Source: a virus
Length of the DNA: 64,000 nucleotides
IMG/VR virus record: IMGVR_UViG_3300030103_005573
Coordinates: 14,151 to 78,150 of that record
Reading direction: 5' to 3' (one strand)
Shown here piece by piece: positions 1-51,230 of this stretch. The notes beneath the pieces are model-generated. The model was not told the DNA's origin. It ran no database searches and was given only the letters and a program-made list of their open reading frames with translations. How positions within the stretch are numbered: the first letter of the stretch is position 1; the number at the start of each line of letters is the position of its first letter. Position numbers and translations under genes: made by a program.

Positions 1-3000
1 CTGCACCTGTTGGCACATCTTTAATATACATATAAACACCCTCACCCTCATCAGGTGTTGAGCCATATTGGTGCCACATACCTTGAGCAGAACTTGTGAA
101 TTCTGATGGATTTACAGAAGAAGAGAAGTCATAATCTACCGCTATACTTGCTGGCGTTGAGGGAGAGGCATCTACACCTCCAGCAAAATCAGTTGTATTT
201 ATAATAGCTGAAGATTTTGCTGTACCAGTTATGACCTTGGTATTCATAGCGGTACCATTGACACTAGACACTATTCCAATTATTGCGCTTAGGCTACTGG
301 GTCTAGACGCTATTACATCAATTTCTCCGTTAGAGGTGCAAAGCTGAATCGCATCCTCAATACGTGACGCTAGAACTGCGTTGCTACCCAATGAATTGAT
401 ACCAACAACATAATTTGTCGCTGAAGCCCTTGAGGGAGAAGAGGTACTATTGTCAAACTCAAAAGTAACTGCTGTTGTATTTGTTGTAATTATAATAGTC
501 ATACCAGAAGCAGCGGAACCATGATCTATTGCTGTAATAGTTGCGGATGCAGCAGCGGCGGATACGGCTTCTGCGGCAGGTGTTCTTATGATATTTGGGA
601 AATCAAGGATTGGGCTTTCCCACTTGGGCATTATTGTCCACTTGTTTGGGTCTGCTGACCTGTAAGAAGATCCTGCCGAGGTTGGAAACTCGTTGCCTAT
701 ATTTATAGAGGCGTCGATATCCATTCTATTAAGCCAAGCACGATTCCACTTATAGGTAGGAGTTGTATTTGTTTCTATCGTATTTCCGTAAGAGTCAATA
801 AAGGAACCCGATGTCGCATCGTAATAACTACCGCTCTCATTCAAGAAGTCTACAAAAACCTCGCCACGGTCATTATTTAAAATTTCTTCTAGCGTATATT
901 CTTGTTTGTCCCCAGTAGGCATAAATGTAATGCGAGCCAAAGAGGGTCCGTAATAATATGGCGGTGTAAACGGTGCAAATTCACCACGATGCTTGGGCCA
1001 TGATGATCCAGATGGTGTCCAAGACCCAGACCCAGCAGCAATCTCCCAAGGTTGTAATATATAACTTGTATTAGTTGCTGGGCCAAAGGCTGCTGGGTTA
1101 CTGTACATGTTAAACTGGTTTGTTTTCATTAATCCAATCTCCATCATGTACGCTTTTGATGAATCAACAGTTACCGTGCGAGCAGCGGCTGTAACCTCTT
1201 GAGAACCCTTCGAAGGGCTACCAAATTGAGATACAAACTTTGTAAGTTTTCCAGGCGAGCCAAATTTATTTTGTTTTGTTTTTAAGAAAAATTGTGGAAC
1301 ATTGGCAAGGAAATTGGATACTGCCTTCTTATAAAGATTGTTAGAATCTACCTGACCTTCTGTAAAAGATGCCGTAACATCTAGATGAAGAAAACTATTA
1401 ATATCAGACATAACCGTTGCTAACGACCCGGTTGTTGTATCTAAATCAGCAGTTAGGTAATCCTCTGGAGCTAGAATAGATTCAAAAGGTAATCTATCCG
1501 CCCAGAAAAGAGCGTTGACGTCTGGGTCTGTCCAATCAAAATTCTCTCTGTTTCTTCTAGAGTTTCCTGGTATTGTACCTGAAACATTGGCTGTTCCTGT
1601 TAATTCGCCATACAGACCCCCAAACAATGGATAACCTATTTTATATCCTGGAAACGTGCCATCACCAGCGGCTGATGTTGATTCCTTCTTGTCGTATTGT
1701 CCAGTGTTTCTTGTTACTCGACGAATTGGAAAATCAACTGCCACACCTGACTTAATAGAGTTATACATGATGCCTGGGGCGAAATATGGTCGTAACATAG
1801 TTCGCCACTGGCTAGCTTGCCCGGCTCCCGAGCCTGCAAATTTTGTGACTGTTCCATATGATTGGGAGAAAAGTGTTGATATCTCAAGAGTTCTATTCAT
1901 TGGATAAAAACTATCATAAGGCAATATCTTCATAATTACATCAGAACTTATCTCAAAATGTCGAGGGTAATCATTGAAAATATAATTAACATCTCCCTTA
2001 TCATAGGACATGAAATCAGACAAAAATTCTATGTTATCCGTAGTAGCATATCTTGTATAGAAGTCTGTATTTGTTCCATCAAAATTATTTACATTTGCTC
2101 CCGTTATCTCTAACGAAGATGAAATTGCAGTAAATAAAGTTCGATTAGTTTTAAATTCAGAAATATGTTCACTTATACGGTATTCTGGGATAATTGTATG
2201 TGCCTTGCCTTTAAGCCTTAACTCACTTACCCACTCGTCATAATTATTATAAAATGGGTAAACCCTTTCAGCAAGACCGCCCTTGTTTTGTCCATCCACG
2301 AATATACGCTCAGAAGCAGCAGTCCATGCAGGGCGAGAAAAAGCTCCACCAGGAATGCGTGGCTCACAATTCGTATTGGTAGAAGCAACTGTACCAGTTT
2401 CAAAAGCAATACTATAAACATATTGTGAACTTACTATTGATGTAGAATCATAAGAACTTGTTCCGGCGTTATTAGATGGTGTAGAATCTGTAACAGAATC
2501 AATTACTGTACCATAATGAACGCTCATTAACTCACCACAAGCAGTAGTAGACTGTCCAGCAAGAATAACAGACGCAGATAATGATCCTGTTTCAAAAGTT
2601 GACTGAGCATAGGTATTAGATAAGTCAGACCATAGATAAGAATCCATAGGCCATATAGAAGCAGACCCTGGTCCTGTTAACTTTGGAGTGAAAGCGTTTT
2701 TTAGATTGTACGGTGTTTGGTCGCCAAGTTGGACTACAAATCCTTGTGAGTTCGTAAAAGGAGATCTCAATCTTGGAACCTGCCTATTATCCCTATCCCT
2801 AATTGTTGGTACATAAAAAAGAGTATCAAAATTAGGATAGAAAGTTGTTACGGTTTCAATATCCGCATCATTTTTCCAAAATGAATTTGCAAAAGATAGA
2901 CGAGCACGACTCCCTGAAAGATAGGTATTTATCTCTTTTGGGAAAATTGTTTCACCATAAGCAAACATTTTTATTATGTTAACACCATTTAGAGCACGAG

Positions 3001-5407
3001 ATGTGTCACTATTTAGTTGTTCTCGTAATACCTCATATGGTCGCTTAACTTTATTATGAGACGCTTTAATATTGCCAATAAGTTGCCTGTTAAGTTCTCG
3101 GTTAGCAAAACCCATCAAAGAGTTTCCATAACTGTACTGTAAATTTAGTGTCGTTTTGTTACTTGAGTCTTTTGCTGGAGTTCCAACAATTGTTTCAATT
3201 TGATGTACTAACGGAATATAACGAGATGTTACTGGGGGCTCTGTAAATCTCTGAGAGTAATAGTTTATTATTGTATTACCTGCTTGATCAGTAGATGTGC
3301 GACTTTGCGTTGCAACATCATTATCAACACCATTCCTAGTTAGGCGCTCTTCCGGGAGTAATTCATAGATATTATTATTTCTTAAATAAGTTGCCCCATT
3401 TTGATACCTTGATTGAAGTTGTGCCCATGGAGCTGTGTATGGATTTGAGGACCAAACATAATATTGATTACCATCAATCCAGGTAAAATCGCCCGTTCCC
3501 GCATTAAAGGAACTGGGAATACCTGTGCTAAGATTTGTTTTTGATAGAATAATATTCTCTGGGTATCTTGACCTTGCAAGTACATAATTGTTATATGTTT
3601 TTGAGTCAGAGCCGGAAAGAGCAAAAAACCACTGCGTACTATCTCCTGCTGGTATTGGTCTTGTTACAAAGTAGGCATCATATATTGTCCCTGTTATAAA
3701 TGTATTATTTGAGGGTATCACTCGTTGAGTTTGATTTCTCTGTGTTTTATTTACTGATGCTATTGTTGTACTACCTGATACAAAACCTCCGAATTCTGTG
3801 TGTGTAGACAATCTCTTGATAAATGGGTTGCGAACAGGTAAATTCCTAAAAGGGAGAGCACTGTTAGATGAGAACTGATCAGAAGTTACATCACGAAACT
3901 GTTGCTTAGAGTCAACCTTAGCGCCCGGTGATGAAAAACGATTTACAATAATAGTCTCATTTGTTTTCCTCGAAGCTATTTGTCGAGGTGATGGGAAATC
4001 TGCTGACCCTGTTAATCCTAGTGCTCTGCGAGAGGGAGTTGTTAAAAAAGCACTTGGCGTTTGATAATTATAATTTTCAGTATTGAATGCCAGGTCCATG
4101 TTAGTTGCAGACCTGTCTGAAGTCTGAACTATTTCATATCTCTTCTGAAAATTACCTACCACACGAACGCTGTTAGATATAAATAAAGTTTGTATATTAT
4201 CAATATTTACAGGGGCTTTAGCTGCTTGACCTCGCAAATAATGACCCCTTGGATTATTTCCAGAAACTTTATTAATGGCAGCAGAAGGTGATTTACCGCC
4301 AGCAAAAGCAGAAGTAGACCCAAAAGAACTAGCGATAAGACTTCCTGCAAATAAAACCCCATTCACTGAAGGTCCTGGAATTGTAGTAGTAACAACAATC
4401 ACTGCGCCAAGATTGTAAGCAGTAACACGTAGATTCTGATCGGTAGCACTGGCGTTTATACTTGTTACCAAAGAAGATGCCACATCTGTAACACTAGCAG
4501 CATCTTTTACGCCCGTAACACTATCAGTACTCTCATCCATATCGGCAGTATTATCTAAGTCAGTCTCAAAATTAACACCACCCAAACTCAAAGTTACGTT
4601 TTTACCGTTATAATTTGAGGTGGCAAAGGATCCACCACCGATGCTAATTGTTATTGTGGCTATGGCAAAACCTCCATCCAATGATAAAGAAAATTGCTCT
4701 TTTCTCTCATTAGTTTGTAATAAGGCATTGTGTCGAGACTGGATTCCTCCAACATACCTCTGCGTGAAAGGACCTTGCATTGGTACCTCACCGCCGTAAG
4801 GCTGTATTTTATCATCATGTAAATTTGCAAAATCTAAATTTGGAAAACCGAAAGATGTTAATTTTGCTTGATATCCTGAACTCACACTGGAACTAAAGGC
4901 ACTAAAAGGCAGTACTTGTTCTCCAGTAAAAGTTTTGCCGTCAAGAACTGCTTTAACTGTAGCACGTTTTTTAATCCCTGGAAATAACTCATCATTTATA
5001 TCGAGATATTCCTCAAATTCACTAAAGACAATATTGTTGGCAAACCTTTTCTTGTTTAAAGGTTGATTACTCCCACCTTTAATGGAATTATCCATCTCAA
5101 GATTAAAAGAAGAAATTCTTTCCCTATCTAAATTTCTTTGTACTTGCACCTTTACAGATTGGTTAGTATAAAGATTATTAATGTTAAAGGATGAAGATAA
5201 AGGGGAATCATATCTGTTTGCGGAATTCTTCCACCAATTATAATTGTTTTTTTGATTCAGTCCGATCGGCGCATGATTATGCTTCCATCCCTTTGATCCC
5301 TGGAGTCTTTGCTGTAGAGTACTTCTTTGATTTGACCCTCCAATAATTCTTTTAGAACTCTGTGGGGGAGCCGTATCTACAGTTATTTTATTTGCGTTTC
5401 TAACCAT
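1..5407 (-). CDS. Very large virion structural (baseplate/tail) protein, >1800 aa, 3' end runs off the window
   Basis: ATG at 5407 (MVRNANKITVDTAPPQSS...). It is absent from the ORF track, consistent with no stop before position 1; I translated the first ~550 aa and the last ~200 aa by hand, not all of it. Ser/Thr/Gly/Asn-rich and follows the baseplate genes. Confidence 0.8.
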   Translation of the reverse strand, partial: MVRNANKITVDTAPPQSSKRIIGGSNQRSTLQQRLQGSKGWKHNHAPIGLNQKNNYNWWKNSANRYDSPLSSSFNINNLYTNQSVKVQVQRNLDRERISSFNLEMDNSIKGGSNQPLNKKRFANNIVFSEFEEYLDINDELFPGIKKRATVKAVLDGKTFTGEQVLPFSAFSSSVSSGYQAKLTSFGFPNLDFANLHDDKIQPYGGEVPMQGPFTQRYVGGIQSRHNALLQTNERKEQFSLSLDGGFAIATITISIGGGSFATSNYNGKNVTLSLGGVNFETDLDNTADMDESTDSVTGVKDAASVTDVASSLVTSINASATDQNLRVTAYNLGAVIVVTTTIPGPSVNGVLFAGSLIASSFGSTSAFAGGKSPSAAINKVSGNNPRGHYLRGQAAKAPVNIDNIQTLFISNSVRVVGNFQKRYEIVQTSDRSATNMDLAFNTENYNYQTPSAFLTTPSRRALGLTGSADFPSPRQIASRKTNETIIVNRFSSPGAKVDSKQQFRDVTSDQFSSNSALPFRNLPVRNPFIKRLSTHTEFGGFVSGSTTIASVNKTQRNQTQRVIPSNNTFITGTIYDAYFVTRPIPAGDSTQWFFALSGSDSKTYNNYVLARSRYPENIILSKTNLSTGIPSSFNAGTGDFTWIDGNQYYVWSSNPYTAPWAQLQSRYQNGATYLRNNNIYELLPEERLTRNGVDNDVATQSRTSTDQAGNTIINYYSQRFTEPPVTSRYIPLVHQIETIVGTPAKDSSNKTTLNLQYSYGNSLMGFANRELNRQLIGNIKASHNKVKRPYEVLREQLNSDTSRALNGVNIIKMFAYGETIFPKEINTYLSGSRARLSFANSFWKNDADIETVTTFYPNFDTLFYVPTIRDRDNRQVPRLRSPFTNSQGFVVQLGDQTPYNLKNAFTPKLTGPGSASIWPMDSYLWSDLSNTYAQSTFETGSLSASVILAGQSTTACGELMSVHYGTVIDSVTDSTPSNNAGTSSYDSTSIVSSQYVYSIAFETGTVASTNTNCEPRIPGGAFSRPAWTAASERIFVDGQNKGGLAERVYPFYNNYDEWVSELRLKGKAHTIIPEYRISEHISEFKTNRTLFTAISSSLEITGANVNNFDGTNTDFYTRYATTDNIEFLSDFMSYDKGDVNYIFNDYPRHFEISSDVIMKILPYDSFYPMNRTLEISTLFSQSYGTVTKFAGSGAGQASQWRTMLRPYFAPGIMYNSIKSGVAVDFPIRRVTRNTGQYDKKESTSAAGDGTFPGYKIGYPLFGGLYGELTGTANVSGTIPGNSRRNRENFDWTDPDVNALFWADRLPFESILAPEDYLTADLDTTTGSLATVMSDINSFLHLDVTASFTEGQVDSNNLYKKAVSNFLANVPQFFLKTKQNKFGSPGKLTKFVSQFGSPSKGSQEVTAAARTVTVDSSKAYMMEIGLMKTNQFNMYSNPAAFGPATNTSYILQPWEIAAGSGSWTPSGSSWPKHRGEFAPFTPPYYYGPSLARITFMPTGDKQEYTLEEILNNDRGEVFVDFLNESGSYYDATSGSFIDSYGNTIETNTTPTYKWNRAWLNRMDIDASINIGNEFPTSAGSSYRSADPNKWTIMPKWESPILDFPNIIRTPAAEAVSAAAASATITAIDHGSAASGMTIIITTNTTAVTFEFDNSTSSPSRASATNYVVGINSLGSNAVLASRIEDAIQLCTSNGEIDVIASRPSSLSAIIGIVSSVNGTAMNTKVITGTAKSSAIINTTDFAGGVDASPSTPASIAVDYDFSSSVNPSEFTSSAQGMWHQYGSTPDEGEGVYMYIKDVPTGA

Positions 5408-12814: not shown

Positions 12815-15800
12815 TTGTAATAAGTAGGTTTTCTAGTAATGTTTTCTCTTGTAAAATACGAGCAGACAACGTTGGTGCAATTTCATATATACCTGACAAG
12901 TGTGATATAAATCTTCCAGCCAATTCTAGTCCACTAAGCTCTGGAGGCAAGCCTGGTTGTCCAGGGTTCTCTTCTTCATAGAGTCTTTTTGCTTCCTCGA
13001 ATCTTTCTTTTGTGTAGTCTCCCCATAAACTAAAGTACTCAGATATTGTACTATAATAGCTTTGTGGGGTCAATGGATCAAGATCCTTGTTTAGCCAATC
13101 ATTCTCCAATATGATAACCCATAATTCGTCAGCGCTACGTTCGATTTCAGTCAGTTGTCCAGAGTTCAACCTTTGTCTTGCAGTATCTATAGTCCTATTA
13201 AAATTAAATGGCTTTAGTCCAATCGTTTGTAATGATGTTAGCGCTGCGCTTAATTGTTCATTAAGGACTGCTGCCTGTTCTTCGTTCGCAATAATAAGTT
13301 GCATCCTCAATGACTGAATTGAATTCTCAAGGAGTGCTACTCTTATAGATTCATTTTGAGTTAATTCTCGCCTTTGATTATCTGGTGCGGACCAATTTCT
13401 AAAAATTGTATCCACCTCTTCTCTAGCAAAAGCTCTTATATCCCCACGTATTCTAACACTGCGATCAAGTGGGTTACCTTCTAATATACTTAAGCTGGTT
13501 ACTCTGTCTAAATAAGACATAATCTCATTATTGGCAATTGTGATATCATCAAGATCAAATAAAGAAAATATACCATACCCCTCAGCAGTTGTATTAAAGT
13601 TAATGTATTGGTTCTCTATCGTATTGAACCTAATTTGTACTTCCCTAGTCCTAAAGTATCGAATGGGCAAGTTCGTATCCCAGGTTGATACATATGTTGG
13701 AAATTTAGTTTGTGCATTAGTGAACTGATAAACTGATTGTCCTTTTATGCTTGTTAATAATCCATCATATGAATCTGCAACAGTAGACAGATACCTAGTG
13801 AAAGTATCTTCATATCTTTCCGAGAACTTGATCCCCTTATCATGATATATCATATAGGATGCTATTTGAGGGGCAGCAGGTATAAAATAAGGACTAACAA
13901 GCATACCAAGTTCGGTTATATCTGTTTCAGTATAAAACTCCCTCACCTTCTGCTTTGTTTGCTCCGCCATATTAGCATCCACAATACCATAGTCTCGAAG
14001 ACTTGTTTGAGGATCTGTTATAGTTCTATACAAATCTAATAAAACTTCTTTGTAATTTTGCATAGTATCTTCATTAAATATTGATTTATTAATGCCAGAA
14101 AATACTTGATTTTTAGCAATGTTAGATAACATACTGATATACATTGATTCAATGATGTTTTTAAAATTTTGACTTGGAGAATTTACATCACTAATCAAAG
14201 GGTTGTTTATCATTTTTTCATCGGAAGCTATTCTAGGATAAACTTTTTGTATGACTCCTACTTGACTTTCAAATGGACCCAACATATTATCATAAGACAA
14301 TTCTTGTGTTATTTTTTGAGACAGATAGTCAGATATCAATTTTATAGTACCAACACTGCCCCAGTGAGGATATACAGTTGTCATTGGCATAATATTTAAG
14401 AAGAAATGAAACATATGATTTTGAATGGTTTCCACTGCTATACTAGCTTTGGAAATATCTTGTGCGGTTATGCACTCATCATCTAATTGCGTAAAGGGAA
14501 ATCTGGATATTGACTGAATATATCTTGACATATTCTGTGGTCCATCTTTTGCTATAACGCTATCATTTATTTGAGTGTCAATTCTTCTAGTATAATTTTG
14601 AAGAAACGCTGCTTTAGTGTTTCTACTATATAATCCAACTTGCGTTCCAGGTCCCTTACCTATGGATAATCGATTATAATAAGTCCTAAAGGCTGGGGAT
14701 CCTATTGGTGGCATCATGACCCCGTCCACATTTAAAAACTCAAAATTATTATTCCTATCTAAGCGGATATTATATTCATCTGATTCTAATCCCTTAAATA
14801 TTTGATAATTAATTTGTTCGAAGGTTCCTCTTGTGCCAGCTTTATAGATGTCATCAGAAACCTCATTACAGTTAAATTCATCTGGATTAAAGGAACACAC
14901 CCTCTGTAAAGAATCTTCATTTGGCTCAGTAAAGAAAGAAATATTTATAGATGGATTTCCAAGAGTTAAATATGACGCTCCTGTCCAACCAGTATATGGA
15001 GAACCTAATTCTACTGCTAAAAGATATTTTCGTACCTCACTACTGACCAGGGTTAAAAGGGCACGATCACCCCTGGATCGAGTCCCATCTTGACTTGTCA
15101 ATGTTGCGCCGAGATTTCTCATCCTTTCTGTTGTTAGGAATCTTTTTAATTTCCCCTCTAGAGAAGGCGGGGCAGTTTTTATGGCATAATATGAAGCGTC
15201 ATATGGTTCATATTGTTTTTGAGGTTTTTCTAAAAATTGTGGAATATCAAGACGAGGAGCATTTGGTATCCTACTAACTGTTCCTGGAGGTGGTAGGTCC
15301 CCTGGGTCGGAGTCTGCGAGAAATTCTTGATACTCATCATAGTTAGCTCGATAGTCAGACCAGATATAGTAATAAACAATCTCGTCCAATTGTTCATTGT
15401 TTCTTGCCTGATAATTACCCTCGTAACTAACCTCACCATTAGGACTAGTTCTTATTCGGAATCTTTGTCTTGTAGGACTCCAACTAGATGGTGTCAGGAA
15501 CCCAATTTCCCTATTGTAAGAATATACCTGATTAATTAAAAGCTCTCTTAAAGAAAAGAATATCTGATAAAAGAGTTCGCTTCCAACTTTTGATGAATAT
15601 AAATTATACTCACCCTTTGCCCTTATAAATCTATCTTCTGATTTATCAAACAATGACATCAAAGAATTAGTAAAAAATGCTGTTATTGCGTTACTTGCAA
15701 ACGCAATAACTTTTAAGAAATCATCATACCACTGTAAATCTGGAACTAGATTTAACATCTGTTGAATTCTAAGCTCCATTCCTTGAAATCCTCTCAAGAA

Positions 15801-44219: not shown

Positions 44220-44606
44220 TTACTCTTCTTTTTTATCTTCCCCGAAAGACATTTCTACAGTCTCTTTACCTTTCTCAAAGGCAAAACCCATGTTGCCATT
44301 CGGCGTTATGAATGATGTACCTTTCCCATCTTCATCATTTTCTAATTCTGAATACATATAGGTTTCTACGTTTTTTCGTAGTTGTTTGGTTTTTAAATAC
44401 ATATCTTTAAAAAGGTCTTCAAGTTCTTTAGATTTTTGTAAAGATTTCTTAGGGTCCCCATGCTTTAGACTTGCAAGAAGAAGTGGTATGACATCTGGGT
44501 GTCTTCTCTCAAAAGCCTCAATAGAATCTAGTGCCAATAGATGAAGAAATTTACCAGCTTTATAGTTTTTAATGTTTAACTTAAGTTCTATGTCTTTAAC
44601 TTTCAT
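44220..44606 (-). CDS. Hypothetical protein
   Basis: 128 aa, GGGAG RBS. Confidence 0.6.
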   Translation of the reverse strand: MKVKDIELKLNIKNYKAGKFLHLLALDSIEAFERRHPDVIPLLLASLKHGDPKKSLQKSKELEDLFKDMYLKTKQLRKNVETYMYSELENDEDGKGTSFITPNGNMGFAFEKGKETVEMSFGEDKKEE

Positions 44607-44633
44607 TTAATTCTCCCTGTAGGGTTTTTCTAA

Positions 44634-45182
44634 TTAGTAATTATCTTCCACATGTTTCTTAATTTGTGCTCTTATAGCTTCTTTTTCTTCCTCTGTTTCC
44701 GCATTTGCCCAGCCCCATGCCAACGTAGCTCTCATATTGTCTGATTTATGCGATCCATCTTTAATATAGTTTTCTAACTCTCCTGAGATCTCATCTGCAT
44801 CTATATCATCTGTTTTGATTTTTAGAGTAGATGCGATAACAAACAGTGTAGCCATATCACATTCTTCATAAGCTTCAGAAGCCTGAGAGAAGTACTCTGT
44901 TAAAACTTCTGAGTCTACTTTATCTGGGTGTGTAGCTTTTGAGATTCTTCTGTATAACTTTTTCATATCTCTGGTAGGCGTTGGTTTTTTCTTTTCTGTT
45001 TCTTCCAACGATGACGGAGCAGTATTCTTTTTTGCAGACTCTATCATTCTTTTATATTCTTCTGGAAAATCTTTATAGAACTGTTCTTTAAACTTCATGA
45101 AGAGATCTGTGGTTTCCTCCAAATCCTCAGAGACATATTGTGCCTTAAATACTAACTTTTTAATGTTTGGCTTTTTTGGCAT
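44634..45182 (-). CDS. J-domain (DnaJ-like) protein
   Basis: MKKLYRRISKATHPDKV...FSQASEAYE: helix-HPD-helix of a J domain. Confidence 0.7.
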   Translation of the reverse strand: MPKKPNIKKLVFKAQYVSEDLEETTDLFMKFKEQFYKDFPEEYKRMIESAKKNTAPSSLEETEKKKPTPTRDMKKLYRRISKATHPDKVDSEVLTEYFSQASEAYEECDMATLFVIASTLKIKTDDIDADEISGELENYIKDGSHKSDNMRATLAWGWANAETEEEKEAIRAQIKKHVEDNY

Positions 45183-45198
45183 ATAATAAATATCCTTT

Positions 45199-45233
45199 AA
45201 AAAAAGAAAGGGGCAGCCGAAGCCGCCCCTTTC
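45199..45233 (-). terminator. Rho-independent terminator after the Ala-rich gene trio
   Basis: GAAAGGGGCGGC-TTCG-GCTGCCCCTTTC followed by a T-run. Confidence 0.85.
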
Positions 45234-45273: not shown

Positions 45274-46797
45274 TTAGCCAGGCTGAACTTCTAGTTGCAT
45301 GACGTTCTCAGCACCAGATGTATTGTATTCAAAGACCAAGTGGACTTTATCAACACCATCTTCAAGTTTGAGAGTACCGCCATCAGAGCCGTCACCGTCA
45401 AACTTAAACTTAGCAGCAAACGCATCAATGTTACCTTGTAGTGCATTATCAGCAGCAAGACGGTCACCTTCTTCAATCCCAATGCTAGTAGCAATACCAC
45501 TATCAGCGACTTGACGAATGTTAGTCTGATTTGCTTCAGCAGTACCACGAGCAGCAGTTTCTGCATCAATCTCAGCCTGAATACCATTGTCACCAGAGAT
45601 GCGTAGTGCTTCTTCACTGTCAACAGCAAGAGAGCGAACACCTTCTTCTGCGGTGTTTGCTGCAATTGCAGCAGCCTTAGCAGAGGACATGCCAGCTTCT
45701 TCAGTAGAAACGTCGGCAGAGCGGTTGGCTGATTCTGTTGCTATAGCAGCCATCAAAACACCATTAGCATTTAGACGAGCAACTTTTTCTGAAGACATCG
45801 CTGCTTCCATGGTAGAAATTTCAGATGAAAGAGCACCAGAAAGAACTACATCGCCCGAAAGCATAGAAGAGTTCTCAGCAGCAACAGCAGCGGCACGATC
45901 ACCAGCTTCAGAAGCTACGTTACCAGCGATGACTGCATCAGCAGCTTCATAAGCTGCCTTCTCAACAGAAAGAGCATCTTTACGATCAAGAGTTTCTTGA
46001 CCAACGAGAACACCGATAGAAGAATCAGCATCACCACGAGCAGTAGCTTCAGCAGCTACGCCTGCAATTCTTGCAGCTTCTTGTGTATCAATATCACCCT
46101 GGATTGCAGCATCACCAGCAGCACGAGCAGTAGCTTCGGCAGTGACAGCAGCAGCACGAGCTACTTCAGCGTCATCAATGTCACCAGAGATGCCGGCATC
46201 AGCAGTAAGACGTGCAGCTTTTTCAGTTGACGAAGCAGCGGCACGAGCAGTTTCTTGTGCGTCAATTTGACCACTTAGAGTAGCATCATCAGCAGCACGC
46301 TTGGATGCTTGAGCAGTTACCTCAGAAGCACGATTAGTAGCTTCATCAGCAATACGTGTCTCCATGGAAAGGTCAGCAGCAGAGCGCAAAGCAGCTTCAG
46401 CAGCTAGATCAGCGATACGTTCTGCTACCGCACTAGACAAGTCGCCAGACAAGGACGAATCCATTGCTTCACGAGCAGCTTTTTCTACGGACAATGCAGA
46501 AGACTGATCACCAGCTTCAGAGTCAATGTTACCCTGAATAACTGTATCAGCATCACCACGGGATGTAACTTCACTAGCGAGAGCAGAGTTTTCATCACCC
46601 TCTTCTGTGGCTAGATTAGCAGAAAGAACGTTACGTGCAGCCAATTCAGCAGTAAACGCATCATTCAAGGAGTGATCTCCACCTGCGGGGTTAGCAACCT
46701 GTAAGACTTCTGCTAGTTCACCAGCAGATTCAATCATCTTTTTCTGAAGGACTAATCCGCTACCGGATGAATCCTCAATATATACATTTTTTGGCAT
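45274..46797 (-). CDS. Ala-rich long coiled-coil fibre protein, paralog 3
   Basis: 507 aa; N-terminal YIxxxxxSGLVLQKKM motif; 18+11 residue ExxAR repeats; short beta C-terminus; AAGGAG RBS. Confidence 0.8.
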   Translation of the reverse strand: MPKNVYIEDSSGSGLVLQKKMIESAGELAEVLQVANPAGGDHSLNDAFTAELAARNVLSANLATEEGDENSALASEVTSRGDADTVIQGNIDSEAGDQSSALSVEKAAREAMDSSLSGDLSSAVAERIADLAAEAALRSAADLSMETRIADEATNRASEVTAQASKRAADDATLSGQIDAQETARAAASSTEKAARLTADAGISGDIDDAEVARAAAVTAEATARAAGDAAIQGDIDTQEAARIAGVAAEATARGDADSSIGVLVGQETLDRKDALSVEKAAYEAADAVIAGNVASEAGDRAAAVAAENSSMLSGDVVLSGALSSEISTMEAAMSSEKVARLNANGVLMAAIATESANRSADVSTEEAGMSSAKAAAIAANTAEEGVRSLAVDSEEALRISGDNGIQAEIDAETAARGTAEANQTNIRQVADSGIATSIGIEEGDRLAADNALQGNIDAFAAKFKFDGDGSDGGTLKLEDGVDKVHLVFEYNTSGAENVMQLEVQPG

Positions 46798-46842: not shown

Positions 46843-48372
46843 TTATGCACCCTTGTGGAGTTCTAAGAGAACAACACCGCTAACAGTCTTGTAATTCATA
46901 CGAACAACATCACTACCATCGGTGAGAGTTAGGTTAGAACCAGCACCAACTGCTGGAGCACCACTGTAGCCAAACTTGTTATCAAGTGAAGTAATTGAGT
47001 CACCCATTGCAGTATCACCTGCAACACGAGCAGCTATAGCATCATCAAGATCACTTTGTAGTGAAAGATCAGCAGATCCACGAGCAGCAGACTCAGTAGT
47101 AATGTATGCAGCCATTGCTGTGTTTTCAGCAGCAATGTTATCACTTAGAGTAACATCACCAGCAGCACGAGCAGTTTCTTCAGCAGCAACATCCGCTACA
47201 CGAGCAGCGACCATTGCAGCAACATCAGCTTCTACATCAGCGACGTCGCCTGCACGGACAGTTGCAAGACTTGCAACAGCAGCAAGAGCAGCAGCCTCTT
47301 CGGTGTCAATGTCACCAGAGATACCAGCATCATCAGCAGCAGCACCAGCTTCTTCGGTAGATACCAAAGCTTCACGATCAACTACAGCACCAGAGATACT
47401 TGCAGATAGAGCCGCATCAGCAGCTTCACGAGCAGCCTTTTCTGTACTTACAGCAGCGGAACGTGCAGCTTCTTCATCAGAGATGAGAGTAGCGACAGAA
47501 ACGTCAGCAGCAGCACGATCAGATGCGTGACCAGTTACAGCAGACGCACGATCAGACTCTTCACTATCAATACCAGCAGAAAGGTTGGCATCACCTAGTT
47601 CACGAGCAGCCTTTTCAGAAGAGATCGCACCAGAGCGAGCAGCAGCTTCGGCAGCAATATTAGCAGCCAAAGAGGCGTCGCCAGCAACACGAGCGTCTTT
47701 TTCTACAGAAAGAGCAGCAAGACGTGCAGTTTCTTCAGCATCAATTTCACCCTGAAGGGCAAGATCAGCAGCCGCACGCTCAGAAGCTTCTAGAGCATGT
47801 TCAGCTACACGAGCTACTTTCTCAGAAGAGATCTGAGAAGCCATATCGTTGTCTTCGTTTCCACGAGAAAGAGCTTCAGCAGAAACAGCAGCACTACGTG
47901 CAGCGATTTCATCATCCTTAAGAGTAGCAACAGAGTTATCTGCGTTTGACATTGCATTAGCTTCAGCAGTTACAGCGTTAAAACGAGCATCGCTTTCATC
48001 ACCAAGTAAAACAGTTTGAGCATCGTCAGCACTGTCCATAGCAGCTTTCTCAGAAGAGATTGCAGCACTTGCAGCAGCTTTCATTGTGCTCAAGTTAGCA
48101 GTAAGAGTTGCATCATCAGCAGCACGAGTTACTCTTTCTGCCGCAGCAGCAGCAGAACGCTCACCAGCTTGAGTGGAAATTGCAGAGTCAATCGCATCAC
48201 GAAGATCTTTTTCAAGTGACAATTGTGCGTTGACGTCTTTATCATCAACGGCAGGTTCCGCAGCACCTGGCTCTAAAACCTTTAATAGAGAAGCTAGTTC
48301 GGATGAGTCCTGAACCATCTTCTTTTGTAGTACTAATCCGCTATCATCAGCGCCATTAATATATGTAGGCAT
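46843..48372 (-). CDS. Ala-rich long coiled-coil fibre protein, paralog 2
   Basis: 509 aa; same architecture; AAGGAGG RBS. Confidence 0.8.
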   Translation of the reverse strand: MPTYINGADDSGLVLQKKMVQDSSELASLLKVLEPGAAEPAVDDKDVNAQLSLEKDLRDAIDSAISTQAGERSAAAAAERVTRAADDATLTANLSTMKAAASAAISSEKAAMDSADDAQTVLLGDESDARFNAVTAEANAMSNADNSVATLKDDEIAARSAAVSAEALSRGNEDNDMASQISSEKVARVAEHALEASERAAADLALQGEIDAEETARLAALSVEKDARVAGDASLAANIAAEAAARSGAISSEKAARELGDANLSAGIDSEESDRASAVTGHASDRAAADVSVATLISDEEAARSAAVSTEKAAREAADAALSASISGAVVDREALVSTEEAGAAADDAGISGDIDTEEAAALAAVASLATVRAGDVADVEADVAAMVAARVADVAAEETARAAGDVTLSDNIAAENTAMAAYITTESAARGSADLSLQSDLDDAIAARVAGDTAMGDSITSLDNKFGYSGAPAVGAGSNLTLTDGSDVVRMNYKTVSGVVLLELHKGA

Positions 48373-48434: not shown

Positions 48435-50930
48435 TTAGCTGATGAACATTTTTACAACGTTTGTACCAGCAACTTTAACGAACTTAGCAGTTACGGCAAC
48501 ACCGGAACCAGCATCAGTCATTACAAAGTCACCACCACCTGCACCATCACCAGAGAAGCCGAGTCTATCAGTAAGGACTTTTAGACTTGTGCTTACAGCA
48601 GCATCGCCAGTTTGACGATCAGCAATTTCACTAGTGATATTTGCGATCAATGCATCATCACCAGCTTCCTTGGAAACTTTTTCTGAAGATATTTCGCTAG
48701 AACGCAATGCAGCTTGAGTAGACATAGCAGCAGAGTGTGTAGCATCATCAGCAGCACGCTTTGTAGCCAAAGAGGATACAGCAGCAGCACGATTACTTTC
48801 TTCATCGGAAAGCAAGTTAGCGATAGAAAGGAAATCAGCTTCACGAGCAGATTCTTCGCTATCTACAGCAGTGATACGAGCGTTGATAGCAGCGTCTAAT
48901 TCGTTGGACAAAGAAACGTCCATCGCACTACGAGCAGCTACAGCTACAGAAACATCAGCAGCACGAGCAACAGCTTCATCATCAATTTCACCCTGAAGAG
49001 CAGCATCAGCAGCAGCACGAAGTCCAGCTTCAGCAGCAACAGCAGTTTCACGAGCTAAGACAGCACTTGAAAGACCGCTGGAGTTTGTTGCATCATCAGC
49101 TTCACGAGTAGCTTTTTCTGAAGATACAGCAGCAGAACGATCAGCGATAGCAACAGCTAGTTCACCTTCTAGGGCAACATCAACGGATTGCATTGCAGAC
49201 TGCTCAGCAGCAATAGCAGAAACATATGCAGCTTCTTCGGAGTCAAGAGCAACAGACTGTGTTGCATCGCCAGCGAGACGATCAGTTTGTTTGTCAGCTA
49301 CTTCTGCGGCCATAGCAGCTTCTTCAGCAGCTAGGTTTGTAGAAAGAGCAGCGTCACCAGCAACACGATCAGCGTTAATAGAAGCCAAAGAAGTATCTTC
49401 TTCGGACTCTTCTGTTGCCAAAAGTGCAGCTACAGAATTATCACCTGCTAACATAGCAGCGGATTCAGCAGCAACAGCGGCTACACGAGCATCTTCCATA
49501 TCACCGATATCGGTTGTAAGAGCTACATCACCTTCACCACGAGCAGTTGCTAAAGAAGCAACAGCAGCGTTCATAGTAACTAACTCAGCAGCGATAGCAG
49601 CACTTTGTGCAGAATCTTTGTTGCTACGAGAAAGTGTTGCTGCGGCTAGATCATCGTCTAGTTCGCCAGCATCAGTAACAAGTTGACTGCTAACAGCAGC
49701 ATCGCCAGCTTGACGCTCAGCAATTGTGAAATCCATATCAGAGATACGAGCAGAAACTTCTGCCGAAAGGGCAGTAGATAGAGAACCACGTTGAGTAGAC
49801 GCTTCAGCGAATGCCTCATTGAGGTTTTTGTCCAGACCAGATTCTGGCTCCGAAACTTTGAGTACTGCTGCTAGTTCGCCAGAACTATCAAGCATTTTCT
49901 TTTGTAAAACTAAGCCAGGCTTATTGGCATCATCAGAAATATAAGCCATGTTGGTTCCTCCATTAAGAGTTATTGTAACCGGCGCACTAGTTGTTTGCCC
50001 GAAAGCATTTTGCGCTATCAATACATATGAAACCGTTCCTGTAATTGCAACCGATTTAGAACTTAATCCCGAAACGTCTATAGTCTCGTGAGTATTTGGA
50101 TTGTATAACGATAATGTTGTACCTAAATCACTGTCCCATGAAAATGTCACAGAGTCACCGCTAGAATCAACACTTGCGACATCTGAAGAGAAAGAGTTTA
50201 TAACAGGGTTTACAACGTGATAACCGTCGGCATGAGTTTCGATAGAATCGTAAGCAATACCATAACCTTGAGACCAGATAATATCATCGTAAAAACCATT
50301 AGCAGATTTGCCATAAGCAAAATTACCACCAATGCGAATATGAGGATCAGAATTGGTAGCATTATAAATGTTACCAGCATAAGAGTCCTTTACGAAATAA
50401 CAAGGGTTTCCACTATTATCATTCAATATGTTGCCAGAGGCATCAAAAAGAGCGTAAGTGAAAACACCCGCTATACGACTGAAATAAATGCGTATCCAAG
50501 GATAACCTGTCAAGTCAATGTTAAAAGACTTACTTGTTTGCGTACCAGAACCATACCGATAGTAAGCACGTAAATCATATGATGAAGCACTATTACCAGA
50601 AGGTCCATAGTTGGCAATTTTAACAACATCAGGGCTAGAAATAAAGTGATGTCTTAACGCTGATGTCCCAAAACTGGAATCATTAGGTTTCCACCAAAAC
50701 ATTACGGTGAAATCGTCAGTTCCTATATTCTCTAGTGCATCAACTGGTCCATAGGCTGTATAATCAACAGCCCTACCTCCAGCAGTATGTCCAATACGAA
50801 AGGCAGGATTAGCACCTCCATACCAGCGACTGCTATTAGCAATAGAAGCAGCTTCACCATAAGCGGTAAGATCAACACTATTAACTCGGTCGGTATTGTT
50901 ACCATTTAACCAATGGTATAAATTAGCCAT
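48435..50930 (-). CDS. LamG-like head plus Ig-like linker fused to an Ala-rich coiled-coil fibre, paralog 1
   Basis: 831 aa; DDFTVMFWWKP...IRIGG...NGFYDDII (LamG-like); PVINSFSSD...VTFSW (Ig-like); stalk begins at MAYISDD. Confidence 0.8.
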   Translation of the reverse strand: MANLYHWLNGNNTDRVNSVDLTAYGEAASIANSSRWYGGANPAFRIGHTAGGRAVDYTAYGPVDALENIGTDDFTVMFWWKPNDSSFGTSALRHHFISSPDVVKIANYGPSGNSASSYDLRAYYRYGSGTQTSKSFNIDLTGYPWIRIYFSRIAGVFTYALFDASGNILNDNSGNPCYFVKDSYAGNIYNATNSDPHIRIGGNFAYGKSANGFYDDIIWSQGYGIAYDSIETHADGYHVVNPVINSFSSDVASVDSSGDSVTFSWDSDLGTTLSLYNPNTHETIDVSGLSSKSVAITGTVSYVLIAQNAFGQTTSAPVTITLNGGTNMAYISDDANKPGLVLQKKMLDSSGELAAVLKVSEPESGLDKNLNEAFAEASTQRGSLSTALSAEVSARISDMDFTIAERQAGDAAVSSQLVTDAGELDDDLAAATLSRSNKDSAQSAAIAAELVTMNAAVASLATARGEGDVALTTDIGDMEDARVAAVAAESAAMLAGDNSVAALLATEESEEDTSLASINADRVAGDAALSTNLAAEEAAMAAEVADKQTDRLAGDATQSVALDSEEAAYVSAIAAEQSAMQSVDVALEGELAVAIADRSAAVSSEKATREADDATNSSGLSSAVLARETAVAAEAGLRAAADAALQGEIDDEAVARAADVSVAVAARSAMDVSLSNELDAAINARITAVDSEESAREADFLSIANLLSDEESNRAAAVSSLATKRAADDATHSAAMSTQAALRSSEISSEKVSKEAGDDALIANITSEIADRQTGDAAVSTSLKVLTDRLGFSGDGAGGGDFVMTDAGSGVAVTAKFVKVAGTNVVKMFIS
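49947..49961 (-). promoter_or_regulatory. Internal in-frame translation start (RBS plus ATG) giving a 504 aa stalk-only product
   Basis: GGAGG-AACCAAC-ATG at 49961-49947, in frame, at the position equivalent to the paralogs' N-termini. Confidence 0.7.
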
Positions 50931-51110
50931 TATTATTCCTCCAAAAAAAAAGAGAGAAATATAACTTATAGAAAACTATTTGGAAAACTTATTTGTAACT
51001 TATCGTCTTACAGAAACGGTCGTTGTCTTCGGCAGTTTGTCTTACCAACGACATGCCTTAAACGTCTTATATAGATTTTTATTCACTGTTTTTTACATTT
51101 ATTTTTATAT

Positions 51111-51136
51111 AAAAAAAAGCCCCCCGAAGGGAGCTT
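51111..51136 (-). terminator. Rho-independent terminator after tRNA cluster
   Basis: AAGCTCCC-TTCG-GGGGGCTT followed by a T-run. Confidence 0.85.
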
Positions 51137-51142
51137 GATTTT

Positions 51143-51230
51143 TGGAGGAAGGAGAGGGATTCGAACCCTCGGTAGGTTGCCCTACACAGCATTTCCAATG
51201 CTGCACCATCGGCCTCTCGGTCATCCTTCC
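51143..51230 (-). tRNA. tRNA-Ser(GGA)
   Basis: GGAAGGA/TCCTTCC acceptor, CAGCA-TTGGAAA-TGCTG anticodon arm, long variable arm, encoded CCA. Confidence 0.93.

Follow-up and report, generated by a model that had tools for sequence, protein, structure and literature searches.

A phage fibre gene whose optional N-terminal head ends in an in-frame start signal at the joint with the stalk

The DNA analysed here, referred to as the window, is a stretch of 64,000 nucleotides (nt) from a virus (positions 14,151 to 78,150 of the IMG/VR record IMGVR_UViG_3300030103_005573). Its element of interest is a fibre gene of 831 amino acids (aa) that contains a second start signal at the joint between an N-terminal head and a long stalk. 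The source record is a 78-kb virus entry with a completeness estimate of ~41%, and the source phage, one of a family of uncultured marine phages, is a myovirus that distantly resembles T4 and encodes a gp6-like baseplate wedge. The fibre operon consists of three tandem paralogous genes on the minus strand (P0001, P0002, and P0003) and is bounded by two terminator-like hairpins (Table 1). All three proteins contain a rod of Ala-rich repeats, preceded by an N-terminal motif (x7-12-GLVLQKKM) and followed by a small C-terminal cap rich in beta structure. P0001 alone among the three carries 327 additional N-terminal residues, which form the head. No match to the fibre proteins was found in cultured phages by tblastn, and the phage has no close cultured relative. 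For the three paralogs, Pfam and PHROGs gave only sub-threshold noise, a sequence search of the PDB gave no match, and protein atlas scores were all <0.85.

Table 1. Coordinates of features of the fibre operon in the window (AF2, AlphaFold2).
Feature	Positions	Strand	Remarks
Gene 1 (P0001)	48435-50930	-	831 aa, headed
Paralog 2 (P0002)	46843-48372	-	509 aa, headless; start signal GGAGGAAATAATATG
Paralog 3 (P0003)	45274-46797	-	507 aa, headless; start signal AAGGAG-N10-ATG
Shine-Dalgarno GGAGG of the full-length 831-aa gene	50938-50942	-	7 nt before ATG 50930
Head cassette, codons 1-327	49950-50930	-	alignment, AF2 model, Foldseek, Pfam of relatives
Joint GGAGG-AACCAAC-ATG	49947-49961	-	in-frame reading Gly-Gly-Thr-Asn-Met328
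Stalk reading frame	48435-49949	-	504 aa from Met328, stop codon included
Terminator-like hairpin after tRNA-Ser(GGA)	51117-51136	-	upstream operon limit
Strong terminator-like hairpin after paralog 3	45206-45233	-	12 pairs, 8 G-C; downstream operon limit
Joint-spanning tryptic peptide of the long form (predicted)			ends VTITLNGGTNMAYISDDANK

An earlier, sequence-only reading of this DNA had pointed to a GGAGG-N7-ATG signal inside the 831-aa gene at 49961-49947. These coordinates are exact. The Shine-Dalgarno (SD) sequence lies at 49961-49957, followed by the spacer AACCAAC and an ATG at 49949-47, on the minus strand and in frame in the 831-aa open reading frame (ORF). The same reading held that the internal Met falls where the two paralogs begin, and that the gene as a whole has a GGAGG ribosome-binding site (RBS) of its own. 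Both statements proved correct. Met328 aligns with residue 1 of P0002 and P0003, and the segment AYISDD...GLVLQKKM that follows it matches MPTYING...GLVLQKKM in P0002 and MPKNVYIED...GLVLQKKM in P0003. A GGAGG-N7-ATG is likewise present at 50942-50928. The internal site has the architecture of the true starts at 50930 and 48372, namely an SD at functional spacing ahead of a start codon, which here is in frame within a longer ORF.

How specific is such a signal in this phage? Chance alone would give 1.24 exact GGAGG-N7-ATG patterns in 64 kb; the window has three, all of them within the fibre operon: at the start of gene 1, at the joint, and at the start of paralog 2. When the spacing was relaxed to 4-10 nt and any start codon was allowed, six sites in the window preceded an ORF of at least 74 aa, four of them an ORF of >400 aa. 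True gene starts accounted for five of the six, and the sole internal site was the joint. Thus, a perfect SD with a start codon specifically marks gene starts in this phage. An internal promoter was also sought with sigma-70-like and TATAAATA scans near the joint, and nothing above chance was found.

Two related phages lack the head. These relatives, L009 (a 178-kb IMG/VR contig) and L083, have the same synteny as the window: a tRNA array ending in tRNA-Ser, three paralogs (502, 499, and 503 aa in one and 502, 501, and 504 aa in the other), and the same downstream genes. Their first paralog is a stand-alone protein of 502 aa that begins MPYISNLSESGLVLQKKM or MAYITAASNSGLVLQKKM behind AAGGAGG-N10-ATG, and its first residue is the Met equivalent to Met328. 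Nucleotide homology between the window and the two relatives picks up again at 49960, which is the joint. The counterpart of the short product predicted from the internal start is an autonomous protein, because the 502-aa orthologues as well as P0002 and P0003 all start at the equivalent Met. No remnant of a head was found in the 372-nt intergenic region of the headless relatives, and therefore both gain and loss of the head are possible. A low-depth contig from run X5 connects 49982 to 50946 and skips 963 nt of the head region. The intervening letters of this contig are not known; it may represent a headless allele or another head type and was not used as evidence.

Protein searches and exhaustive representative searches led to ~30 distinct proteins in which a head is fused to a stalk. 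Nucleotide evidence came from 21 metagenome loci that yielded 17 distinct joint contexts (loci L084-L102), and P0005, P0008-P0010, and P0108 were represented as protein only. An alignment of 15 sequences (A4) separates type A heads (MANxYHW..., the type present in the window) from type B heads (MAVFSPTNAKVH...). The two types are 26-30% identical in the first (LamG) domain and much more similar in the second domain. Heads and stalks are found in various combinations. For example, a type A head is present on a window-type stalk in P0004 and on a 'QADVDQNE'-repeat stalk in P0009, and a type B head is present on a nearly identical window-type stalk in P0005 and P0006. In P0007 and P0008, head B is followed by head A on a 'QADVDQNE'-repeat stalk. 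At least six other stalks, 195-616 aa long, carry heads as well. P0033 (789 aa) has a head into which an additional domain is inserted, and a third, much more divergent head type occurs on an orthologous stalk in P0108. Separate head genes were sought among shorter proteins, and none was found apart from a contig-end fragment (P0024) and a probably frameshifted copy (P0023).

At the head-to-head joints (P0007, P0008, and L086), the sequence reads ...GGNSM-ANVYHW..., and the residues after the Met are those of the normal head A N-terminus (ANVYHWLNG). In L086, a type B and then a type A head lie in one ORF (1225-3570); the head-to-head joint is GGGGGGAATTCTATG, with a weakened SD, and the head-to-stalk joint GGAGGAAATAACATG is kept. 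In P0033, the LamG part and the Ig domain of the head are separated by an additional beta-rich domain of ~100 residues, and the head still ends QLSQGGNNM-SKISAGAAGLVLQK.

The sequence-only reading had called the head optional and exchangeable, and had asked whether relatives swap or lack the N-terminal domain while keeping the internal RBS. That is the pattern seen at the same locus in related phages. The head is absent in L009 and L083, replaced among types A, B, and the third type, or stacked, and every fused relative keeps an internal SD-ATG. These sequence comparisons show that the LamG-like and Ig-like head is an optional, exchangeable, and stackable cassette, the 3' boundary of which is the stalk gene's own SD-ATG in frame.

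The joint is kept across the three head types, at least nine stalk types, and the head-to-head joints. At the protein level, all of the ~30 representatives keep Gly-Gly-x-x-Met-(Ala/Pro/Ser) at every module boundary (for example, GGNDMA in P0027 and GGSEMA in P0031), and no exception was found. At the DNA level, the ATG is present in 17/17 joint contexts and GGAGG in 16/17, so that a loss of the internal RBS from fused homologs, the outcome that the sequence-only reading had named as speaking against two products, was not seen. The spacing is 7 nt in 17/17. The joint is in frame with no stop codon in 17/17 as well; head and stalk share one continuous frame, and therefore no programmed frameshift is needed to join them. 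The spacer codons vary (AAT AAC, AAT AGT, ACC AAC, AAT ATC, AAT GAA, TTA GGC, and ATT CGT), as do the spacer residues (NN, NS, TN, NI, NE, LG, and IR), and the residue following the Met is A, P, or S. In 16/16 fused ORFs, the joint is the sole GGAGG followed by an ATG. The persistence of the joint between heads whose LamG parts differ so widely, and despite changed spacer codons, weakens the idea that it is a relic of a recent gene fusion, an alternative that had been raised at the outset.

The codons that follow the two kinds of start were also compared. Every head has GCT directly behind its true-start ATG (17/17; window 50925-50927, for instance), and the joint ATG is followed by GCT in 10/17 and by CCT, TCT, TCA, TCC, or AGT in the rest. 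The residues after joint and true-start ATG codons all permit removal of the initiator Met.

Could Gly-Gly-x-x-Met instead be conserved for the sake of the protein? It might serve as a linker or as a processing site between head and stalk, and its likeness to an RBS would then be incidental. Gly-Gly is indeed a typical interdomain linker, and the motif always lies between folded modules. However, in headless orthologues and paralogs this very Met is the first residue and a GGAGG precedes it in non-coding DNA, so that the motif goes back to a start signal. Nor would a linker account for a Met that never changes, for the use of GGA where GGT is preferred, or for a constant distance of 7 nt amid freely varying spacer residues. 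As to processing, no protease or autocleavage domain was found in Pfam and PHROGs scans of the fibre proteins and their relatives. A linker or processing site is a very improbable explanation of the joint. In all relatives, moreover, the Ig domain ends exactly at the GGAGG, a position that would suit a translational pause at the domain boundary during which the head folds before the long coiled coil emerges. A pause, however, leaves unexplained both the invariant ATG at a fixed spacing and the identity of the joint with the starts of headless genes, and SD-induced pausing is itself disputed in the literature. A pause site is hardly credible as the reason for the joint, and even when the linker, processing, and pause explanations are pooled, their probability stays low.

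The choice of synonymous codons at the joint points to a constraint on the DNA itself. Gly codons in the heads are GGT in 45% and GGA in 29% of cases, whereas the first Gly of the joint is GGA in 16/17. The major-codon share at this position is 0.94, compared to a mean of 0.67 over 36 conserved fourfold-degenerate head columns and to 0.40-0.88 in 13 other conserved Gly columns. Taken with the variable spacers, a GGA share of 0.94 against a background of 0.29 indicates that the internal SD and start are conserved beyond the need of the protein. With z of +0.5 to +0.8 in 16 ORFs, the mRNA around the joint is predicted to fold less tightly than the ORF background. At +/-30 nt this holds for 16/16 ORFs (mean z +0.8), and in these ORFs the predicted structure is at least as loose as at the true starts. 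The mRNA structure gives weak support for an internal start, as the sequences are related and the GC-rich stalk raises the background.

The sequence-only reading assigned a LamG-like and an Ig-like domain to the upstream 327 codons, and structural modelling agrees with it in placing a jelly roll of the LamG/ConA-like kind and an Ig-like sandwich in residues 1-327. The type A jelly roll spans approximately residues 40-225, and an I-set-like Ig sandwich spans approximately residues 240-322. The AF2 model of the head (mean predicted local distance difference test, pLDDT, 72.7) consists of a jelly roll plus a separate beta sandwich. In this model, the Ig-like part (240-322) has eight strands with pLDDT 81-91. 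Furthermore, profile positions 244-328 match tandem repeats of large proteins that match PF07679 I-set, so that AF2 and the profile relatives together identify an Ig-like sandwich of seven to eight strands. A Foldseek search with the head model gave 240 PDB matches at E<=0.001, and the best were lectin-like jelly rolls (E 2e-7). The TM scores were 0.3-0.43 over the two-domain model and identity was ~9%, which is a likeness of fold alone. AF2 and Foldseek both place the first domain of the window head in the jelly-roll beta-sandwich fold. The closest structural match was the lectin-like jelly-roll subdomain of clostridial neurotoxin binding domains. A kinship with these binding domains was considered and rejected, as the likeness is at the level of the jelly-roll fold only, and PF07953 is below the cut-off in one relative.

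Laminin_G_3/ConA-like lectins (PF13385) share the jelly-roll fold with these heads. Type B heads of relatives match Laminin_G_3 above the Pfam cut-off (E 1e-12 to 1e-17; 45.7-63.9 bits vs 27.6), whereas P0001 with its type A head has no Pfam match at E<0.1, PF13385 and Ig families included, and does not reach the PF13385 gathering score. Motifs common to type A and type B heads are GTGDxTVxFW, W..I..R..G, and G.YDD. The head is a putative, probable glycan-binding module.

One statement of the sequence-only reading about the head did not hold. Its codons were said to be more AT-rich than those of the stalk, but the G+C content at third codon positions (GC3) is 0.25-0.29 for the head, compared to 0.22 for the stalk and 0.23-0.29 for other phage genes. 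The overall GC content differs (39% in the head and 46% in the stalk) because the stalk is Ala-rich. The argument from codon usage for a foreign origin of the head is rejected, as the GC3 of the head resembles that of the rest of the phage.

The stalk bears on how chains with and without a head might come together. Three copies of stalk residues 600-831 were modelled as a parallel, in-register bundle with same-residue contacts, with a score of 0.62 vs 0.00 for the best of three controls. A score of 0.62 was reached by 20/30 proteins solved as pairs and by 1/23 solved as single chains, in a calibration that was made with two copies, not three. In the trimer model, partner pLDDT is 80 or higher, and the runs have 91% or more of their contacts in common. 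The model supports a putative association of stalk-sharing chains with all N-termini at one end, and the head would lie at the N-terminal end of this parallel bundle. In most phage fibres, the N-terminus is the virion-proximal end. The label 'receptor-binding tip' is therefore not established for the head.

Two sequence features of the stalks recur widely. The motif G-L-V-[LI]-Q-K-x-M is found 7-17 residues past the start Met in nearly all stalk types, headed or headless (window 49890-49949, 48313-48372, and 46738-46797, and loci L090-L102), and the stretch that separates it from the Met is freely variable. The motif may serve as a peptide for docking or registry. The Ala/Asp-rich repeat 'QADVDQNE(A/S)D' of the P0008 and P0009 stalk is present in fibre-like ORFs of >70 IMG/VR contigs that differ widely in size (L010-L082) and is a widespread marine phage rod repeat without a Pfam family.

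These observations are best explained as follows. In the 831-aa gene, which is the first of three coiled-coil fibre paralogs, an optional head cassette has been placed ahead of the stalk. The cassette ends in a complete initiation signal (GGAGG, 7 nt, ATG, then usually GCT) that is read through as Gly-Gly-x-x-Met-Ala, and the joint is the original start of the stalk gene. Ribosomes would start at 50930 and at 49949, and one mRNA would give a headed chain of 831 aa and a headless chain of 504 aa. The two chains, having an identical stalk, would mix in a parallel oligomeric rod, and the probable glycan-binding head would be present on a part of the chains only. The 15-nt signal, as it is found at ordinary starts of the locus, would also be an in-frame crossover site that moves heads between fibre genes. 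An unoccluded GGAGG-N7-AUG is expected to recruit ribosomes in bacterial initiation. Because the signal at the joint is of this kind, intact, and conserved, and because endolysin genes offer a precedent, we think it rather probable that the internal start is used and that one gene yields headed and headless chains that co-assemble.

The joint is also a boundary of recombination. Compared to L085, the window is 91-98% identical in the flanks and 71-92% identical in the LamG part; the value drops to 62-68% in the Ig domain and rises abruptly to 98% at 49960. In the public run X6, contigs with window flanks turn into unlike sequence at 49979 and 50925, and the unlike stretches translate to ATYGTTTSDP (the end of a P0005-type Ig domain) and VFSPTNAK (the start of head B). 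Thus, a close natural relative has head B between the two SD-ATG boundaries. The RNA-library run X19 contained only short contigs of a diverged relative with <90% identity. Mosaic breakpoints coincide with the joint.

The breakpoints can be explained equally well by the main rival to this model, in which the joint is a scar of recombination and nothing else. The old start of the stalk would have been kept by repeated crossover in the shared 15 nt, internal initiation would be negligible or functionless, and the virion would contain essentially the full-length chain. Such a scar fits with the identity of the joint with ordinary starts at the locus. For example, the start signal of paralog 2 in the window is, letter for letter, the joint of L097, L099, and L102. 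All loci belong to one family and one site, and the third position of the second Gly codon, at 14/17, is near that of the first Gly (A in 16/17), which suggests limited divergence. However, divergence has reached the spacer codons and flanking synonymous sites but left the SD, the ATG, and the distance of 7 nt between them intact. The joint persists even where the LamG parts of the heads have little identity, and also in the divergent P0108 head. Furthermore, a scar does not by itself predict that a strong start stays silent, and the lack of a short product would need active occlusion. A scar without a function in initiation is possible, but we consider it somewhat unlikely.

Several points count against the use of the internal start to make chains that co-assemble. 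A crossover within the SD-ATG at each head swap would by itself keep the signal without selection for internal initiation. All joints come from one phage family and one genomic site, and therefore the 17 joints are not independent events. The synonymous-site signal at the joint is modest, the loci being related, and no more than suggestive: 4/36 columns (three Val columns and the Ala after the true start) have a share of 1.0, above that of the first Gly of the joint. One head-to-head joint, in L086, has decayed to GGGGGG. In the window alone, the predicted RNA accessibility of the joint is unremarkable. The passing score of the trimer model may reflect a generic likeness to coiled coils, and the number of chains is not fixed by the model.

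If the joint does act as an internal start, its reach could be wider than this locus. Tentatively, fibre genes of marine phages might share the 15-nt SD-spacer-ATG as a general 'in-frame plug' grammar. Modules that end in the signal would join genes that start with it, and every joint would be an active start. A stack of n heads would then give n+1 nested chains, the ratio of which would set the number of adhesin heads per fibre.

The neighbourhood of the operon has features of its own. In all loci with enough upstream sequence, the fibre gene lies directly after tRNA-Ser. The variable fibre gene is immediately 3' of a tRNA-Ser (GGA or AGA) in L085, L087, L090, L092, L095, L098, L100, L101, and L102 and in the window (50930-51230). 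This tRNA-Ser is the end of the phage tRNA array, the content of which varies among relatives. The site after tRNA-Ser is a conserved position for a hypervariable gene. On the other side, two small genes (182 and 128 aa; window 44220-45182, minus strand) lie directly past the terminator of the fibre operon. They are kept in the headless relatives (L009:10752-11767 and L083:10749-11762) and have no PHROG match. They are candidate partners in fibre assembly or docking.

Nested in-frame genes that arise by internal initiation are well known in phages, as in gene 4A/4B of T7, C/Nu3 of lambda, and A/A* of phiX174. The fibre gene resembles them in having one frame with two starts and, as predicted here, a long and a short protein with a common C-terminus. 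In contrast to those cases, which are fixed in single genes, the N-terminal part here is present, absent, exchanged, or duplicated among close relatives. Ig-like domains are said, after work by Fraser and colleagues in 2006, to be added to phage structural proteins sub-stoichiometrically by programmed frameshifting. Our model similarly places an accessory Ig-like or adhesin module that is mobile among phages on a fraction of the copies. However, the frameshift-added domains are C-terminal and depend on a ribosomal slip, whereas the module here is N-terminal, its dosage would come from a second start, and no slippery site is involved.

The closest parallel is found in endolysin genes with an in-frame internal start, in which the full-length enzyme and a chain consisting of the cell-wall-binding domain only form heteromers (Pinto et al. 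2022, PMC9430671). As in the endolysins, an SD and an ATG lie inside a longer ORF at a linker between modules, and a C-terminal module that can stand alone makes up the short product. Both products of an endolysin gene contain the oligomerising part, so that there are fewer N-terminal modules than chains, and the same is proposed here. The fibre gene differs in that it encodes a coiled-coil fibre and no enzyme, has a lectin-type head as its optional part, and uses the joint as the cassette boundary for several head and stalk types; its two products are predicted from sequence. The searchable literature yielded no phage fibre gene described as having an internal start, nor a conserved SD-ATG as the universal in-frame joint of swappable N-terminal adhesin cassettes.

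Why does such a joint matter? The host range of phages is set largely by fibre modules, and the exchange and dosage of these modules is a central question. The joint offers a rule that can be read from sequence: the cassette begins and ends with the same RBS and start codon. As a result, insertion, removal, exchange, and stacking of heads all preserve the reading frame. Should ribosomes use the internal start, which its conservation suggests, the phage would have a tunable number of lectin-type heads per fibre. The principle of two polypeptides from one gene, shown for endolysins, would then extend to virion adhesins, and an in-frame GGAGG-N7-ATG at a domain boundary would become an annotation signature for optional modules in uncultured phages. 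If the plug grammar holds as well, these phages would have a built-in means to tune and diversify their adhesion to hosts or particles.

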